Positions 2 to 13,728 of a stretch of DNA of 64,000 nt are shown here, in pieces. Source of the DNA: Escherichia phage 241. A model generated the notes under the pieces. It was not told where the DNA came from. It ran no database searches and was given only the letters and a program-made list of their open reading frames with translations. Location: sequence record OR924452; one strand, given 5' to 3'. The first letter of the stretch is position 1. Every line of letters begins with the position of its first letter. A program made the position numbers and the translations under genes.

Positions 2-385
2 TCCAGTACTCAACTTTCTTTCAAAGGCACATATTTTGAAACGGGTGACACGTCATTCAATGGTACAGTATTCAGCCTTGTTGGTTGGTGTACTCTTAAC
101 TTTGAAGAATGTCTTGTTTATTTGAACAACACCACAAACTTCGTGTCTTCTGGTGGTTCTGGGCAATCTGCTGGCGTCTTGGGTCTAACGATTAAATCTC
201 AAGGTAACGTGTGGCGTAAAACTGACGCGGGGACAACCACAGTGTTTGCAGTTGACCCAGTCACTAATAAACAAGCCTTAGTTGGATCCGAAATATTGAA
301 TGCTGCGAGTGGGGCAACTATCGCATATTGGGCTGGTGCCGTCCCACCTGGCACATACACGGCTCCAATCAGTGTTGCATTTTAA
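2..385 (+). CDS. tail fibre / tailspike protein, C-terminal fragment (5' end lies outside window)
   Basis: Reading frame open from window start to TAA at 383-385; Gly/Ser/Thr-rich C-terminus; followed by hairpin terminator. Confidence 0.5.
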   Translation, partial: SSTQLSFKGTYFETGDTSFNGTVFSLVGWCTLNFEECLVYLNNTTNFVSSGGSGQSAGVLGLTIKSQGNVWRKTDAGTTTVFAVDPVTNKQALVGSEILNAASGATIAYWAGAVPPGTYTAPISVAF

Positions 386-388
386 TTT

Positions 389-412
389 CCCCCTCCTTCG
401 GGAGGGTTTATT
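389..412 (+). terminator. rho-independent terminator
   Basis: CCCTCC-TTCG-GGAGGG hairpin followed by TTTATT. Confidence 0.6.
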
Positions 413-432
413 AGAAAAACAGGAGATTCATC

Positions 433-2913
433 ATGAATCCGCAATTTGCTCAACCGAAAGGTTCTACTTCAAAAGAAACGAACAAAGATAGCATCGCCCG
501 TAAATTTGGGTGCAAAAAGTCGGAAGTCGTTTATGCCAAAGCGGGACAGTCTTTGTCTGGTTATAAAGTGATCTACGATAAGGTGTCTCAACGTGCCTAC
601 GCTCTCCCTTCTAACATTGGTGCTGTAACGGTCACCAGTTTAGTTGACGGCATCCTCACGCACTCTGGAGGCACTGTAGATTTGGGTGCGCTGGCGGTGT
701 TGCGTGAGGAATACGTCATTCTGATAGAAAATTTCACTTCCGGATTTACGATTCGTGTCAAGAACGAAGTCGTGAGCGATGGAGTGAATTTATACCGCTG
801 GGGTGGTGGTTTACCAAAGACTGTCAATGCTGGTGAAGATCTAGACTCCACTGGAGGGATTAGCGTGGGGGCGTGGATTAGCGCGGGCGTTGCTTCATTG
901 AGGAACGATCTTGCTGCTAATGATGGGTTTAAATTTATTGGGCAATGTCCAGATATAGCAACATTAAGGACAATTGAACCTGGCGTCAATGGTCAAAGAA
1001 TTATATTACGGCAACATACGGCTGGAACTGGTCTTGGCGGCGGTTCATTTAGGGCTGTAGTTGATGGCACCGGATATGAAGACGATAACGGAGTGGTTAT
1101 TAAAACAACTGGCGGTGCCGCCTGGCTACGCCTCAACGCAGATAGAGTTAATCCGTTTATGTTTGGGGCAACAGGTGGTGTGGACGACACTGTGGCTGTT
1201 CAGGCCAGCGTAGATAGTGGTCGAGCCACCGAACTAACTGCGCCATTCAACGTCACTTCCATTAAGCTGAAGAAAAAATCTGCAAGTATCTACGGGTCAG
1301 GTATGCACATCTCAAGGCTAGTGCAAAAACCAGGGGTGGCTGGTGACTGTGTGGTTATTGAAGATACCTGCTCGCTTATTAAATTGGATAATTTCGGTAT
1401 TTACGGAACTGGTGCACAGCAAGATACTGCATTCACTGCGGGAACGCGTGGATTAGTTGTTCCAACCCCCACCGGACTTTCTACAAACTACCCATTTAAC
1501 ACATCAGCAGACCCACGAAGGGATTTGTGTATCAACAACGTGCATATTGCTGGGTTTGATGAGTATGGACTTAAAATCGAAAATGGAAACTTTTCAGTAT
1601 CAACGACAAACCTTCTTATTAACCACATTAATCAAGTTGGTGCGTATTGCGCAACAACAGACTGGACTTGGACAAATATCCAGATAAATACCTGTGGTAA
1701 GGAGTGTCTTGTCTTAGATGGCGCTGGCAACGCCCGTATTATTGGTGCTAAACTTATTTGGGCTAACTGGCAACCATATGCTGCTTCAGGTAGTTACCCT
1801 GGATTGAAGATAAACAATTGTCAAAACATTACTATGAGTGCTACAGAGGTTCAGGACTGCGGTTCTGATGGCATAATCTTTAAAGACAGTTATTCTATTT
1901 CAATTTCAGGACTAAACACGAACAGAAACAGCATAAACAGCAACTACTCATATAACAACTGCGTATTTGATAGTTGCGACGTTACAATTGATGGGTTCGT
2001 TGGTCTTAACTATTCTTCAAACTCAGGTTCGGGGATACCTTCCAGTGCCGCTAATTTTAGATTCCTGTCTTCAGATTGTACCGTAGTCGTAAACGGAAAT
2101 GTAGAGTCAGAGTATCTCGGTATCTTGTTCCGTGGTGATAACAATATTATTCAGCCAACGAATTCAGACCTTAAAATAAATGGATTGATTAATTACGATA
2201 AAACAAGCATTACATTTCAAAATGTAATGCCTTCATTCGATGGTGTTAGTACCACTCCTGTATTCGTTCCCGCCCCATCAATTATAGGCCAGGCAAACGG
2301 ACTTCGTTTGTCACAAGGAAATAAAGACAAAATCAGGTATACAACATCCAGAGTTCCAGCTGGTGGCGTGTCACTATCTGCAATTCTAATACCAACAATA
2401 ACTGGCGCTGAAACGTTTAATATTATTGTTCTGGGTACTGGATTTGGCTCTACCAACAATAGCCTCTACTTTCAGTTAAATGTCGACTCATCAGGAAATC
2501 AAAGCGTTGCATTACTTATCAGTGGCGATGGTCAAACACAAGTTCTTTCTGGGGTGATTCCGGATGAATTTAAGATACAAAGTGGAGTTCCGTACCATTT
2601 TGCATTGGGTGCTGCTCCTGGGAGATTCTGGTGGAGTATATTAAATATTCAAACAGGTTCACGTATAAGAAGGGCATTTAGACGTGATTACTTAAGCGCT
2701 CCATTTAACAGCTTATTTGGTAATGATGTTTCTATAAATTTCTTCTCAGGTGAAGGTTCATCAGATGAAGCATGCTCTGGGATTGGGGCAAAAGTTTATG
2801 CTGGAGCATTCAGTTCTGAATCTGATTATTGCGCAAGCAGATACTACAGTTTGTACAATCCTATAGACCCATCTAAAATGTTTAGCTATAGAACACTTGA
2901 TGGCTCCATATAA
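433..2913 (+). CDS. tailspike protein with pectate-lyase-like right-handed beta-helix (probable polysaccharide depolymerase)
   Basis: 826 aa; motif VNPFMFGATGGVDDTVAVQASVD typical of pectate-lyase-fold tailspikes; repetitive N/S/T/G-rich beta-helix-like segments; AGGAGA RBS before ATG. Confidence 0.7.
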   Translation: MNPQFAQPKGSTSKETNKDSIARKFGCKKSEVVYAKAGQSLSGYKVIYDKVSQRAYALPSNIGAVTVTSLVDGILTHSGGTVDLGALAVLREEYVILIENFTSGFTIRVKNEVVSDGVNLYRWGGGLPKTVNAGEDLDSTGGISVGAWISAGVASLRNDLAANDGFKFIGQCPDIATLRTIEPGVNGQRIILRQHTAGTGLGGGSFRAVVDGTGYEDDNGVVIKTTGGAAWLRLNADRVNPFMFGATGGVDDTVAVQASVDSGRATELTAPFNVTSIKLKKKSASIYGSGMHISRLVQKPGVAGDCVVIEDTCSLIKLDNFGIYGTGAQQDTAFTAGTRGLVVPTPTGLSTNYPFNTSADPRRDLCINNVHIAGFDEYGLKIENGNFSVSTTNLLINHINQVGAYCATTDWTWTNIQINTCGKECLVLDGAGNARIIGAKLIWANWQPYAASGSYPGLKINNCQNITMSATEVQDCGSDGIIFKDSYSISISGLNTNRNSINSNYSYNNCVFDSCDVTIDGFVGLNYSSNSGSGIPSSAANFRFLSSDCTVVVNGNVESEYLGILFRGDNNIIQPTNSDLKINGLINYDKTSITFQNVMPSFDGVSTTPVFVPAPSIIGQANGLRLSQGNKDKIRYTTSRVPAGGVSLSAILIPTITGAETFNIIVLGTGFGSTNNSLYFQLNVDSSGNQSVALLISGDGQTQVLSGVIPDEFKIQSGVPYHFALGAAPGRFWWSILNIQTGSRIRRAFRRDYLSAPFNSLFGNDVSINFFSGEGSSDEACSGIGAKVYAGAFSSESDYCASRYYSLYNPIDPSKMFSYRTLDGSI

Positions 2914-2917
2914 CAAA

Positions 2918-2944
2918 AACCCCGCTTCAGCGGGGTTTTTATTT
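2918..2944 (+). terminator. rho-independent terminator
   Basis: CCCCGC-TTCA-GCGGGG hairpin followed by TTTTTATTT directly after the tailspike stop. Confidence 0.7.
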
Positions 2945-2966
2945 CTATCTGTCTGTTGGCTGTATA

Positions 2967-2974
2967 CTAAATAT
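2967..2974 (+). promoter_or_regulatory. late-promoter-like motif CTAAATAT
   Basis: CTAAATAT about 30 nt upstream of ATG 3006; TATAAAT also present at 2978-2984. Confidence 0.4.
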
Positions 2975-3005
2975 CTCTATAAATGGCACTCGATGGAGCA
3001 TCAAA

Positions 3006-6000
3006 ATGCAATCTACAAATCTAAACCGTCGCCCGTATTGGGACGACTGGAATCCTGGAAAACGGTTTTCACGGATTCTTTTTCGCCCGATGCCTATTAA
3101 AGTTCAGACTCGTGAACTAAACCAGATGCAGACTATTCTGCAAGATCAGATTGAAAAGCTGGGAAACCATTTGTTCAAAGATGGATCTATGGTTATCCCT
3201 GGTGGTCTGACGATTACCAACGCCGCTGTATCTATGAAATTCACTCTGGCTGGCGGTACTGAGTTTACTGATCTGGAAGGGATTACTGAACTTTATGTTC
3301 TGGGAAAAGACAATAATGCCAAAGCGCGTGTGCTATCTCTTGAACGTGATCTGTCTGCTCCGGATACGATGTTGGCCATCCTTGAAATGACAGAAGTGGG
3401 TAATGCAGATGGCTTCCACGTCAACGACAATCTGTATTTCCAAACCTATGACGTCAATGACAACTTCATTCGTATTGGTTATGGTATCGCAGCTGCGGTG
3501 ACTGGTTCTATCGTCGCTCGTATGACGAAGGGCGTTTACTTCATTCGTGGGATGTTCCTTGATGTTGATGACGCGACTCTCATCGTCGATAAAACTTCAA
3601 ACACTTCTTCCCATCGCGTCGGGTTTAAAGTCACTGAAACCATCGTGACTGAATCTGAAGACGAATCCCTTTATTCAAACGCTCAGGGAACGATTAACTC
3701 CAAAGCCCCAGGCGCTCATCGTCTTCGAATAGATCTGGTCTTATCTCGATTTGATTATGATGCTGTGGTTGAAGACTTTGTTGAACTGGCCAAAGTTCGT
3801 GATGGTAAAATCCAGTCTATGGTGACTCAGTCCACCTATAATATTCTGGAAGACACGTTGGCTCAACGGACGTATGAAACCAACGGCGATTACAACGTTT
3901 CAACGCATCAGATCGACATCCGCGAACACCTGAAAGTCAATAACAATGGTGGTGTATTCAATGCTGCTGATGGCGGCGACGAAAGTAAATTCGTGTCTGT
4001 AATGAAACCAGGTATTTCCTATGTTCGCGGTCGTCGTATCGAAAACGTCGGGGAAGAGTTGGTGATCGTTGACAAGGCACGGGATACCGATGTCCTGAAT
4101 AACACGCCTGTCGCAGTTGCTACAGGGAATTATCTGGTCACCAAGAACTCCAAAGGTGTTCCAGTAATATCTCGCACTGTGCGATACAAGTTATTGAACG
4201 CATCTGGCGCTGCTCAAGCCACGGCGTTGTGTATATCCGCTGAACGCAATTCAACTGAATTCCGTCTGTACATGCGTGATTTGGTTGTGACTGGGGACGC
4301 GTCCACTATCACCAAAGTGTCTTATGAAGAAAGTGGTATCACCATGTTCTCTGCTGAACTGGAATCCAACCAGTTTAACCAGAGTTCTATGGTAGACTTG
4401 ATCTTCTCTCTTCCGGTCTTCGGTGTTAAAACATTAGCGCCAACAGGTTCCGTGGATATCAACTACACAGTCCTCAGAACTTATAAGGTGACGCTAGACA
4501 GCAGCGGTTCTGGTTCTATTTCAGCTCCGCTGGGATATAGTTTCTCTCCTGAATTTTCGTTGTATTCTTCTGCGAAATCCGATGGTTCAGAAGCGCAATT
4601 TGATATCTCTGGCTCTTTGTCACTGACTGGTTCTCCGGTGGGTTCGGCTTTGCAGATTTCCCTGGGTAGCGGTAATGCTAACCAGTCAATCAATTTGCTG
4701 GCACTGATGATCCGCACTACGGCCACGATCAAAACGAAGACGATAACTGAAACCACAGAGTCTGTGACTTTTACTTCCCAAACCAGTAGACCTCTGGCAA
4801 ATCACGACGGCTGGAAATTGGTATCTGTCAAAAATGATACTGGCGCGGACGTGACTTCGAGCTTCACCCTCGACGGTGGCCAACGCGATGCGGGATATTA
4901 CAAGGCTAATCTGTTATCCACCGCTGGAGCCATTTCAGGGACGTATACGGTGGTGTATCAATACTTCGCGCATAGTTCGGGGGATTTCTTCTCAGCGGAT
5001 TCGTATACTTCAATGGATTACAAAGATATCCCGAATTATACATCCTCCACATCAGGGGCGGTGTATGGTTTGGCCGATAGCCTTGATTTCCGTCCGAAAA
5101 TTACCAACGGGACATCCGACACTGATATGGTTCGCCCGAATACGGCTGTCATCCTGGACACAGAGTATTATTTGCCTCGTATCGACGCGATTTATCTGGC
5201 AGATAATGGCGTGTTTGGTGTAGCCCGTGGCATCAGTTCCAACAACCTGGCGTCCCCAGCAATACCTGCAAACTCCATGCGTTTGTATGAACTGTTGATT
5301 CCCCCATACACGCCGAATATCGATGATATACAAATTCGCACCATCGATAACCGTCGTTATACGATGCGTGATATCGGTAAACTGGAAACGCGTATTTCCA
5401 ACGTTGAATACTACACCTCTCTGTCGCAGCTGGAATCTTCGGCGATGACACAACAGGTATTTGATCCAATCACGGGTAATCCGCGATTCAAAAACGGTAT
5501 CGCCGCCGATCCATTCAAAGACTTCCGTCTTATTGATGATCTGTCTGAAGATTGGATGGGATCTATCGATACGGAAAATGGACGTTTGCGTCCGTTTGTT
5601 CAACAGAACGCCGTTGACATGACTCCAGTAGGCTGGAACAAAGTGATGGATGGTATGGTGGTTTGTAACTACACGCCTGAAATCTCCGTGAACCAAGAAT
5701 ACGCGACGACGACGATCAACGTTAACCCGTATGCTGTATTCAACTGGGAAGGTTTCTTGAAGATTAACCCGACCACGGATTACTGGTTTGAAAACTACTA
5801 TGTCGCCCCGCGTGTTATCAATGAAACGATCAACACTCGTGGTACTGTACAAGAAGGTTCGGTGTACGGGACGTGGCGTACTGTTTCTGTTTCTGATCGT
5901 GTTTGGGAGCCGCATGGCGCTGGTGGTGTGTGGTGGGGATACCGCTATCGCACGACTGTTTCTGCCCGTGATGTCACCACATACACATACACGGACAAAA

Positions 6001-10155: not shown

Positions 10156-10854
10156 ATGGCCAGACCATTTGAAAAATATTTCTACCATGAATCGTTGTTG
10201 AAATACATTCATGTCTTCAACGCTATCATGTCAGATTTAAAAGTCAAAACCGAACGTGGCTTGATGGAAATCCCGCTGCATATGGCTATTGGCCGTCGCA
10301 ATGACCTCAACAGGAACGTGCCAGCCAATATGCTGCCATTTGCGACTATGTCCTTCGGTCAATTTGAAATTAATAAACAAGTGACCAAGTCGTATCATAA
10401 TCAGATATCGACTGCAACTGCGCGGTCCAAACAACGAATTCCGATCATTATAGATTTTGAATATAACATCAGAACGAAGAAACTGGTCGAAATGCTACAG
10501 GTGTTGGAACAAATTTATTCTGTGTTCACTCCTTCTATTGATTGTCAGATAAAAGACAACGATACGTTATCTCAAGATCAAAACGTGAAGATTATGTTGA
10601 CGTCCCATACCATTTCCGATAACTGGGAAGGGGATGCCGCTGAATCACCCCATATAGATTGCACCTTTAATTTTCAATTACATGGGCACATTTATGGCGA
10701 AGATTATTGGGTCGATGACGGCTCTGGCGGTGGTGATCCGAACGTTATCAAAGAGATAATTATTGAAATGTCTAATGATTTGAACACGCCATGGTCGGAA
10801 CTGCCTGAGTGGTTCCGAGTTGACAAAGATGGCATACATCATCCGGAGGATTGA
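10156..10854 (+). CDS. tail sheath stabiliser / tail completion protein, T4 gp15-like
   Basis: Synteny between gp14-like gene and terminase genes. Confidence 0.55.
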   Translation: MARPFEKYFYHESLLKYIHVFNAIMSDLKVKTERGLMEIPLHMAIGRRNDLNRNVPANMLPFATMSFGQFEINKQVTKSYHNQISTATARSKQRIPIIIDFEYNIRTKKLVEMLQVLEQIYSVFTPSIDCQIKDNDTLSQDQNVKIMLTSHTISDNWEGDAAESPHIDCTFNFQLHGHIYGEDYWVDDGSGGGDPNVIKEIIIEMSNDLNTPWSELPEWFRVDKDGIHHPED

Positions 10855-10856
10855 TC

Positions 10857-11537
10857 ATGAGCAATATGTCAGAAAGGTTACTTGCGACGCTAGACGCGGT
10901 GACTGCCAGAGATGAAGTTGGTAAGGAGGCGATGGAAGCCGTCTCTCCACGTCCAGGTATTGACTTCGATGAAAAAACGGGCGAGTGGTTTGGTGAACGC
11001 CCAGAAGGTTATCAGCCGATTCCAGAACCTCCATCATTGGAAGATATCGCGTCCAAAGAATCCAAGGTTCCGGAGTTTGCGGATACTGATGCCACAACAG
11101 ATTACAAGCGAATACGCGATACGACATACGCCATGCAGGAAGCCACGATGTTCATGATGGGGCAAGCTGCTAAATTAGCTGCATCTACCGAAGCCCCAAG
11201 AGCGTTTTCTGTGTTTCGTGAATTGGGCGAACTCATGCGCGGCCTGAACAAAGACCTGATGGAAAACCAAAAAACCATCAAAGCTGTGACAGGGGATAAA
11301 GAACCGCCGACTGATGACACAACCGTGGATGTTACCACTTCACCCGACGGGACCACAACAGTATCTGTTGGGAAGAAAGCGAGATCTTCGCGCGATTTAT
11401 TGAAAACGATCGAAGATGCACGCCGCCGCGCTGAAGAACGCGCTCAGGCAAAAGCCACCCAACAAACCGAAGATGAAATTATCGACGGTGAAACGGTTGA
11501 CGTGAAGGAAAAAGACGATGGCGTATCAGAAGCGTGA
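10857..11537 (+). CDS. terminase small subunit, T4 gp16-like
   Basis: Immediately upstream of and overlapping the large terminase gene; GGAGGA RBS before ATG 10857; acidic/charged C-terminal region. Confidence 0.55.
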   Translation: MSNMSERLLATLDAVTARDEVGKEAMEAVSPRPGIDFDEKTGEWFGERPEGYQPIPEPPSLEDIASKESKVPEFADTDATTDYKRIRDTTYAMQEATMFMMGQAAKLAASTEAPRAFSVFRELGELMRGLNKDLMENQKTIKAVTGDKEPPTDDTTVDVTTSPDGTTTVSVGKKARSSRDLLKTIEDARRRAEERAQAKATQQTEDEIIDGETVDVKEKDDGVSEA

Positions 11538-13728
11538 TATAGAATATGCTCCGATAAAAACGGGGTTTAAAATCGACGACGTGAAATTGCGTATGGACCA
11601 GACGTTCATGCGCAAGCCTTCTGTGCGCGCTCCACGAGTCGAGTTGATGCTAACAGATGAACAAGAAGACGAATTTGTTGAATGTTCAATGGACGCACAT
11701 TACTTCGCTGCCAATTACTACAAGATAACGACAATCGATAAAGGCTTTATCCTTTTCGATATGCATGATTATCAGAAACAATTATTTCACGATTTTCAAG
11801 ATTATCGTTTCAATGCCGTTGTCCAGGCGCGTCAGTCCGGTAAATGCGTCCGTGGTGATACTCTTGTTTATGTCTATGATACAGTCAGTCAACAAGAGTT
11901 GCATCTCACCATAGAAGAGCTTCACAAGCGCTTCGAAGGACCGAACCATGCTGTGCCACTGAATACCATTGGCAACCACAATAAGTTTGTAGACAGCCGT
12001 TTCGGGAAACGATATTTTGTTGAGTCCGACACTGGCTGGGTTCCGGTTATTGCCGCTCATAAAACGAAAGAATACGCTGAATACGTGGTCAGGACTGAAA
12101 CCGGACGCACAATTCATGTCGCAGATGAGCACATGTTCTTCAATGAATATGGGCGCGAAGTATTTGCTAAAGACATGGAGGCCGGAGATGCCATAATGAC
12201 CCAGGAGGGAATAGAATTCATCTCTGAGATCTGGGAGACTGGTGAGTACCACCACATGTATGACTTGCAAGTCAAGTCCAGCGATCAACGTTATTACACG
12301 AATGGGTTCCTCAGCCATAATACCACGGTCGTGGCTGCGTTTCTTCTTTGGTATGCGATGTTCCACTCAGACAAAGAAATCGCGGTACTGGCAAACAAAG
12401 AGAAACAAGCGATTGAAATTCTTGACCGTATCAGGAAGGCGTATCAGGACCTCCCATTCTTCCTTCAGCAGGGTTGTGAGAAGTTTGGTTCTACACTGAT
12501 AGAGTTTGAGAACGGCTCTAAGATATATGCTTATGCAACGTCTTCGGACTCTATTCGTGGTCGTTCTGTATCTCTCTTGTACGTGGACGAAGTCGCGTTC
12601 ATCGAAAATGACTTTGAATTTTGGGAATCAACATTCCCAGCGATCGCATCTGCTGATACTTCACGTTGTATTCTTACCAGTACTCCGAAAGGCCAGCGAG
12701 GGTTGTTCTATGATATCGTCACCAAAGCAGACCCGCGCCATCCACAATACAACGATTTCCATCTTACCGAAGTCCCTTGGTACAAGGTTCCGGCGTACAC
12801 CAAAGACCCTGATTGGGAAACCAAACAACGCGCTCGTCTGGGGGATGCCCGTTTTGACCAGGAATTTGGAATCAAGTTCCGTGGTTCTGTAGGTTCATTG
12901 ATACCAGCCAAATGCTTGGATAAAATGACATCCAAGTTATATCGAGAGCCTAATGAGTTCACCAAAATTTACAAGGAATATGACCCGCAACGCATCTACT
13001 TCGGGATTGCAGATACGGGGAAAGGTGTTGAAGGAGATTATTCGGTTCTGACAATTCTGGATATAACGGAATACCCGCATGTCATAGCGGCCAAGTACAG
13101 GAACAATACAATACCTCCGATGATGTATGCATACACGATAGCTGATATGTGTACTGAATACGGGGAGTGTCCAGTCCTTGTAGAAACCAACAACGACGTT
13201 GGTGGACAGGTTATTACAATCTTGTATCAAGAAATTGAGTATCCAGAGATTATATTCACGTCGACGGATAACAAAGGGACAGGGAAACGGATTGGTGGTC
13301 GTAAACCAGAGCCAGGCATTAACACCAACAGGAAAGTGCGATCTATTGGTTGTGCTAACCTGAAAGCGCTTATTGAGAAAGAAATGTTGGTGATCGAAGA
13401 CCAAGACACGATAGATGAACTCAGCACATTCGTGTTCCGTGGTGCGCGTTATGAAGCAGATGATGGATGTCACGACGACTGCGTTATGCCGTTGGTATTA
13501 TATTCTTGGGCAGTTAAACAAGAATGGTTCAGTGATCTGACTTCTACCAGTATTTCTCAAGACATGAGAAATAGAATGTCTTCGACTGAGTCACAACAAG
13601 TATTCCCATTTGGTGGTTTAGTCGTGGGAGACACTCCATCTGGAACTGAGCATCTCCCTGGGTTCGGTGGTGTTCAAGTCTTCGACGAACGTTCAGGGAT
13701 GACAATGGACGAGTGGTTTAAGAATTGA
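11518..13728 (+). CDS. terminase large subunit, T4 gp17-like, interrupted by a mini-intein
   Basis: RFNAVVQARQSGK...TTVVAAFLLWYAMF matches T4 gp17 [24 protein letters not shown] once residues 110-268 are removed. Confidence 0.9.
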   Translation: MAYQKRDIEYAPIKTGFKIDDVKLRMDQTFMRKPSVRAPRVELMLTDEQEDEFVECSMDAHYFAANYYKITTIDKGFILFDMHDYQKQLFHDFQDYRFNAVVQARQSGKCVRGDTLVYVYDTVSQQELHLTIEELHKRFEGPNHAVPLNTIGNHNKFVDSRFGKRYFVESDTGWVPVIAAHKTKEYAEYVVRTETGRTIHVADEHMFFNEYGREVFAKDMEAGDAIMTQEGIEFISEIWETGEYHHMYDLQVKSSDQRYYTNGFLSHNTTVVAAFLLWYAMFHSDKEIAVLANKEKQAIEILDRIRKAYQDLPFFLQQGCEKFGSTLIEFENGSKIYAYATSSDSIRGRSVSLLYVDEVAFIENDFEFWESTFPAIASADTSRCILTSTPKGQRGLFYDIVTKADPRHPQYNDFHLTEVPWYKVPAYTKDPDWETKQRARLGDARFDQEFGIKFRGSVGSLIPAKCLDKMTSKLYREPNEFTKIYKEYDPQRIYFGIADTGKGVEGDYSVLTILDITEYPHVIAAKYRNNTIPPMMYAYTIADMCTEYGECPVLVETNNDVGGQVITILYQEIEYPEIIFTSTDNKGTGKRIGGRKPEPGINTNRKVRSIGCANLKALIEKEMLVIEDQDTIDELSTFVFRGARYEADDGCHDDCVMPLVLYSWAVKQEWFSDLTSTSISQDMRNRMSSTESQQVFPFGGLVVGDTPSGTEHLPGFGGVQVFDERSGMTMDEWFKN
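11845..12321 (+). mobile_element. mini-intein (159 aa) inserted in terminase Walker A motif between Lys and Thr of GKT
   Basis: Insert begins with Cys (CVRGDTLV), ends with His-Asn (FLSHN) and is followed by Thr; flanking exteins rejoin to a canonical P-loop; too short for an endonuclease domain. Confidence 0.8.

Follow-up and report, generated by a model that had tools for sequence, protein, structure and literature searches.

The large terminase gene of Escherichia phage 241 (sequence record OR924452) carries within its ATP-binding motif an in-frame insert of 477 nucleotides (nt), which is almost certainly a canonical class-1 mini-intein. The window analyzed here is a 64,000-nt stretch of this record, and all positions are counted from its first letter. 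The phage is a Kuttervirus (Ackermannviridae, Vi01-like), and its large terminase gene, terL, is 99.7% identical at the nt level to those of Salmonella phages Marshall (Marshall_50), Maynard, and Mooltan and 99.3% identical to that of Vi01. The insert lies in the Walker A motif (P-loop) of a large terminase subunit (TerL) of the T4 gp17 type, consists of a HINT domain with no homing endonuclease, and would splice itself out to leave an active TerL. Its anatomy, its homology to inteins, the conservation of its catalytic residues, its precise absence from relatives, and the purifying selection acting on it are all shown here. The element is real and ordinary, and it is already known: its boundaries have been annotated and were published in 2013.

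The gene for the TerL precursor is an open reading frame (ORF) on the plus strand (11518..13728) that encodes 736 residues (84.7 kDa), matches PF03237 (Terminase_6N), and can be divided into three parts on that strand. The N-extein (11518..11844; 109 residues) aligns to T4 gp17 up to RQLGK and ends with ARQSGK (11827-11844), where Walker A begins. The mini-intein (11845..12321; 159 residues, 18.6 kDa, Cys110-Asn268 of the precursor) is marked out by intein models, profile matches, an entry in the nr database, and GenBank mat_peptide features at the same boundaries. The C-extein (12322..13725; 468 residues) supplies what remains of the ATPase domain together with the RNase H-like nuclease domain; its alignment to T4 gp17 extends to residue 563, and it has a borderline match to PF17289. 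The precursor reads ...VVQARQSGK/CVRGDTLV...NGFLSHN/TTVVAAFLLWYA..., with the insert in frame with both exteins, and the match of the sequence to an insert of this description is far beyond chance. The G+C content is 46.5% in the insert, 44.7% in the exteins, and 45.2% in the window.

The identity of the host protein is clearest once the insert is removed. We deleted residues 110-268 in silico, and the resulting spliced protein of 577 residues aligned to T4 gp17 over residues 28-516 (PDB 3ezk, E = 4.6e-76; PDB 3cpe, E = 8.1e-75) with no gap at the junction, which reads aRQSGKTTVVAaFL in the spliced form and sets RQSGKT opposite T4 RQLGKT. PF03237 scored 60.2 bits on the precursor, with a match starting only past the insert, and 77.5 bits on the spliced form, with a match that starts at residue 103 and includes the P-loop; PF17289 scored 20.9 bits on the spliced protein, slightly below its cut-off of 22.6. 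From the change in the Terminase_6N score and the gap-free alignment to T4, it follows that the insert splits Walker A between Lys and Thr, which is where a preliminary description of this DNA had placed it and had expected excision to restore the motif. With an N-terminal ATPase domain that contains Walker A (G/A-x4-GK(T/S)) and a C-terminal RNase H-like nuclease domain, the host protein is a terminase of the T4 gp17 type (Terminase_6).

The insert, taken alone, is recognized by models of intein splicing regions. TIGR01445 (intein N-terminal splicing region) scored 26.8 bits, against a curated cut-off of 24.5; TIGR01443 (C-terminal region) gave a weak match; and PF14890 (Intein_splicing) matched with an E value of 3.9e-8 and 33.7 bits and is also precomputed for the nr protein identical to the insert. 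Searches of solved structures with the single insert sequence returned the gp41-1 intein (6qaz, E = 8e-4), plus other inteins. A profile made from the alignment of nine homologous inserts returned gp41-1 (6qaz, 1.6e-8), VidaL (6vgv, 3.8e-8), and the Pyrococcus CDC21-1 mini-intein (6rpp, 2e-6). The PDB matches at E < 0.01 are inteins without exception, whether the query was the single sequence or the profile, and the profile alignments reach the terminal His-Asn. A protein-database search with the intein gave two proteins only, the identical nr entry named "intein" and a partial fragment.

The residues needed for splicing stand out when the nine aligned inserts, which come from six Ackermannviridae genera, are compared. 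Cys1, Ala93-Asp94-x-His96, Asp140, His158, Asn159, and Thr+1 are invariant, and the remaining domain diverges, down to 33% identity. In the window, on the plus strand, the block A Cys1 codon is TGC (11845..11847; Cys110 of the precursor, invariant in nine of nine homologues), and this is the sole Cys of the intein. The block B His96 codon is CAC (12130..12132) in the motif ADEH, and the block F Asp140 codon, verified as GAC, lies at 12262..12264 in HMYDLQV. Block G and the residue that follows it occupy 12316..12324, with CAT AAT for His158-Asn159 at 12316-12321 (His267-Asn268 in precursor numbering) and ACC for Thr+1 at 12322-12324 (Thr269); SHN/TT is invariant, and Thr+1 doubles as the Walker A Thr. 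The sequence features of a class-1 intein are all present: a nucleophile at position 1, the block B His, the block F Asp, the block G His-Asn, and a Thr at +1.

Only 44 residues separate His96 of block B from Asp140 of block F, and scans with family models found no match to an endonuclease family in the insert; the element is therefore a mini-intein, without room for a homing endonuclease. The LAGLIDADG, HNH, or other endonuclease domain that characterizes bifunctional inteins between blocks B and F is missing, and the splicing domain accounts for all 159 residues. The preliminary description had called the insert a mini-intein too short to hold an endonuclease and had named a comparison with intein databases as a check. 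That description stands: the insert matches TIGR01445, PF14890, and solved inteins, and as a HINT/intein domain it has class-1 residues that stay invariant down to 33% identity. An antisense ORF over the intein (11782..12366, minus strand, 194 residues) coincides almost exactly with it and was considered as a hidden gene, such as one for an endonuclease. It has no Pfam match, and its open length is not conserved (194, 164, 126, 124, 88, and 81 residues across relatives); it was rejected as a gene and is in all likelihood a mechanical ORF. A hidden Markov model of the TerL intein found no second related intein in the six-frame translation of the window (no E value below 0.15).

An insert of the same family occupies the identical site, RQSGK/C...SHN/TTVVAAF, across six genera. 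It is found in CBA120 (Kuttervirus), Magnus (Taipeivirus), XF4 (Limestonevirus), SKML-39 and P46FS4 (Agtrevirus), Serratia phage 3M (Miltonvirus), and Vibrio phage VP-1 (Vapseptimavirus; locus 2312-2848), the last with a 179-residue intein that is 33% identical. Compared to the inteins of the enterobacterial phages, that of VP-1 has a 19-residue insertion, and one additional residue downstream of it, between blocks A and B, and by this insertion the region between the two blocks is a variable appendage. At a threshold of ≥60% identity, 278 records of the phage collection contain the intein and 283 the extein, so that within the Ackermannviridae clade the intein is essentially fixed. In Klebsiella phage TTM-TASP117 (PV588649.1, 52532-53211), the intein match falls in two pieces over 680 nt, not 477 nt, in a region annotated as two hypothetical proteins, and there may be an insertion or a frameshift inside the intein.

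All seven Ackermannviridae among the matches listed match the spliced query in two pieces, and the first one-piece match among those listed is Vibrio phage D495, with 57% extein identity. Its TerL is a clean intein-less allele, CRQSGK/TTVVAAFLLWYALF, that runs directly from CRQSGK into TTVVAAF. Across the phage collection, some 2,300 terminases of the T4 type show <60% identity to the extein, and those among the matches listed are in one piece, save a few that are split or partial. The in-frame insert is precisely absent from orthologues, with T4 gp17 and D495 both continuous over RQxGK/TTVVA. The preliminary description would have given way to homologous terminases that contain the same residues as an ordinary conserved domain, and this is not what is seen: the T4-type terminases among the matches listed are in one piece, apart from those few, and D495 is without the intein. 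For the four pairs of inteins whose synonymous divergence (dS) is not saturated, the ratio of nonsynonymous to synonymous divergence (dN/dS, Nei-Gojobori) ranges from 0.03 to 0.16, and such low values are consistent with selection for splicing ability.

We infer that splicing occurs and that it is needed for ATPase activity from intein chemistry, the position in Walker A, the conserved catalytic residues, the viability of the phage, and the adjacency of the Lys and Thr in T4 gp17. The translation product would be the 84.7-kDa precursor, with the Lys and Thr of the P-loop 159 residues apart. An N-S acyl shift would then give a thioester of Cys1 with Lys109, on which Thr+1 would act by trans-esterification, its attack producing a branched ester. 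Cyclization of Asn159 would release the 18.6-kDa intein, and an O-N shift would restore an ordinary Lys-Thr peptide bond. What should remain is a TerL of 66.2 kDa, joined as ...RQSGKTTVVAAF... and with RQSGKT intact, able to bind ATP and to package DNA.

Several observations weigh against this account. The Thr of the block B TxxH motif is replaced by Ala, the invariant Ala93; in block B it is the catalytic His that is conserved, with variation at the Thr position, and the gp41-1 intein, aligned at block B, reads SEEH, with Ser at the Thr position. The PF14890 score lies slightly below the gathering cut-off of 35.8 bits. A single-sequence AlphaFold2 model of the intein was uninformative on the fold, with a predicted local distance difference test score (pLDDT) of 36 and a predicted template modeling score (pTM) of 0.24. 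The searchable literature gave no splicing experiment on this Ackermannviridae TerL intein, and the published intein calls are based on InterPro signatures. Given that splicing is known by inference and that the Pfam score falls just short, the insert might be thought a degenerate HINT domain that does not splice, an accessory domain in a full-length 736-residue protein that is itself the active terminase. We consider this very improbable: the insert parts the Walker A Lys from a Thr that is its neighbor in T4 gp17; the splicing residues are all invariant even though the domain diverges to 33% identity; and close as well as distant orthologues are precisely without the insert. Cleavage side reactions are known of inteins in general, and N- or C-terminal cleavage with no ligation would leave a terminase in two pieces. 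This outcome is scarcely credible here, with Thr+1 and the complete set of ligation residues conserved and with a two-chain P-loop being unlikely to bind ATP.

A different kind of alternative is that the intein splices conditionally, with splicing delayed until a cue (redox, temperature, or the binding of a partner or of DNA), such that it times the terminase and is retained for the benefit of the phage. The fixation of an endonuclease-less intein at one site in at least six Ackermannviridae genera, with dN/dS of 0.03-0.16, speaks for such a switch, and published work argues that inteins may be concentrated in P-loops for functional reasons (PMC4760082, PMC5050341). We nonetheless regard it as unlikely, since no sign of a sensor is visible in the sequence, and Cys1 is the only Cys, so no disulfide trap within the intein is possible. 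Fixation and purifying selection are equally predicted for a selfish element in a motif so essential that the phage tolerates no deletion but an exact one and splicing competence itself is selected.

The mini-intein and its exteins differ in their histories. When the window is compared with CBA120, amino acid identity is 99.0% in the exteins, with dS of 0.94, and 78.6% in the intein, with dS saturated. Between CBA120 and PC3 (Aglimvirinae) the pattern is reversed: the intein is 95.6% identical, with dS of 0.34, and the exteins are 86.8% identical, with dS of 2.5. A tract of ~420 nt in PC3 (approximately terL nt 300-720; window 11845-12240), which begins shortly before the intein start and stops ~85 nt before the intein end, is 95-97% identical at the nt level to CBA120, and the flanks on both sides are mostly 83-98% nt identical to XF4 and P46FS4. 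This mosaic is a recombination tract, with one end in the flank that codes for the conserved P-loop region and the other in the conserved segment coding for blocks F and G. The PC3 tract indicates, from the sequence comparison, that intein alleles are exchanged by homologous recombination and so move between Ackermannviridae lineages without an intein-borne endonuclease. Relaxed constraint was also considered as the sole cause of the high divergence of the window's intein from that of CBA120, and it was rejected on the saturation of dS in the intein against 0.94 in the exteins; the reverse pattern of dS between CBA120 and PC3 opposes it as well.

A free-standing homing endonuclease gene, F-LimIX, is located between terL and the small terminase gene, terS, in Dickeya phage XF4 and Salmonella phage SKML-39 (loci 409-1287), at a distance of ~330 nt on the upstream side of the intein insertion point. 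It is absent between terS and terL in the window, CBA120, Magnus, P46FS4, and PC3. F-LimIX could drive co-conversion of the neighboring intein region.

Exchange and regulation could also be combined, with the intein kept in the Ackermannviridae as a conditional switch on the terminase and its core (approximately terL nt 300-720) exchanged as a cassette by co-infecting phages. We think this combination quite improbable; its regulatory part is pure speculation, and the exchange of the variable core is shown by the allele comparisons above. The evidence for exchange of intein alleles is the only mildly new material in this analysis. Deeply diverged intein alleles on near-identical exteins, together with the mosaic tract of PC3, provide a modest lead on how mini-inteins persist and move without an endonuclease of their own.

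The surroundings of terL are given for context only. The terS gene is an ORF on the plus strand (10851..11537), homologous to Marshall_49, which is annotated 'terminase small subunit', and it shares a 20-nt overlap with terL. The gene order is neck protein, tail sheath stabilizer, terS, terL, and tail sheath, the same as in Marshall. There are no tRNA genes in the 64-kb window.

Some of the public records of this gene already describe the intein. In GenBank KF669653, Marshall_50 is named 'intein-containing terminase large subunit', carries the note 'intein from Cys110 to Asn268', and has mat_peptide features for both the intein and the mature protein, and there is similar annotation at the same boundaries in Mooltan and Klebsiella phage Magnus (MH688040, MN045230). 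The nr entry YP_008772116.1 is the identical 159-residue sequence under the name "intein [Salmonella phage Maynard/Marshall]." In most other Kuttervirus records the intein is unannotated, and the gene is simply 'terminase large subunit'. Genome announcements report a large terminase interrupted by an intein, from the InterPro Hint domain and splice-site signature (PMC3853055, PMC3868846, PMC6763660), the Marshall and Maynard intein having been published in 2013 (PMC3853055, PMC3868846); the literature on this intein, reviews of the Ackermannviridae included, yielded genome announcements only. Terminases are a common target of phage inteins, with Terminase_6 proteins as recurrent hosts (PMC4760082), and the "classic" P-loop insertion is between the invariant Lys and the nucleophilic Thr (PMC5050341).

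As a discovery, then, the TerL intein has little weight: it has been annotated and was published in 2013, and P-loop terminase inteins are textbook cases. Its value is in annotation. Most of the ~280 Ackermannviridae records with this gene say only "terminase large subunit," and where the intein is unannotated, alignments and phylogenies with TerL as the marker overlook the mature 577-residue protein and the true Walker A.

Known systems resemble this intein to different degrees. The TerL intein of Marshall and Maynard (KF669653, KF669654) is the same element, its 159 residues being 100% identical and its boundaries equal, with no difference of substance. The mycobacteriophage TerL1-a inteins (Kelley et al. 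2016, PMC5050341) likewise interrupt the P-loop of a large terminase after its Lys and before its Thr and are reported to splice efficiently, but their host is a Terminase_1 protein, not Terminase_6, and their intein lineage is unrelated. The gp41-1 (6qaz, 6riz), VidaL (6vgv), and Pyrococcus horikoshii CDC21-1 (6rpp) inteins are the closest solved structures by sequence and align over blocks B, F, and G to the terminal HN; they reside in other host proteins, and residues ~12-57 of the TerL intein (block A to B) are outside the alignments.

More distant phage relatives, 30-40% identical over blocks B-G, all lie inside Walker A motifs: those of the CP21/IBB_35 TerL, the SCTP-2 TerL, and the UvsX-like recombinase of Cassandra/PA5oct. 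In the TerL of Salicola phage SCTP-2 (locus 2492-3385), the site is the same, HN/TAVAALYLLWYAMF, but the gene is broken into pieces and has another intein that starts at LLY/C. The TerL gene of Campylobacter phage CP21 (locus 2494-4939) is also in pieces; its intein is inserted three residues upstream, PRQ/C...HN/SSKST, and there is a second intein start at ...FRGFSC/CLENT. In Pseudomonas phage Cassandra (locus 164-3209), the host is instead a RecA-like/UvsX-like recombinase, with the intein at GESG/C...HN/SGKS. Its gene is in two pieces, each with one half of the intein, and between them lies a separate ORF, Cassandra_0006, annotated 'hypothetical protein'.

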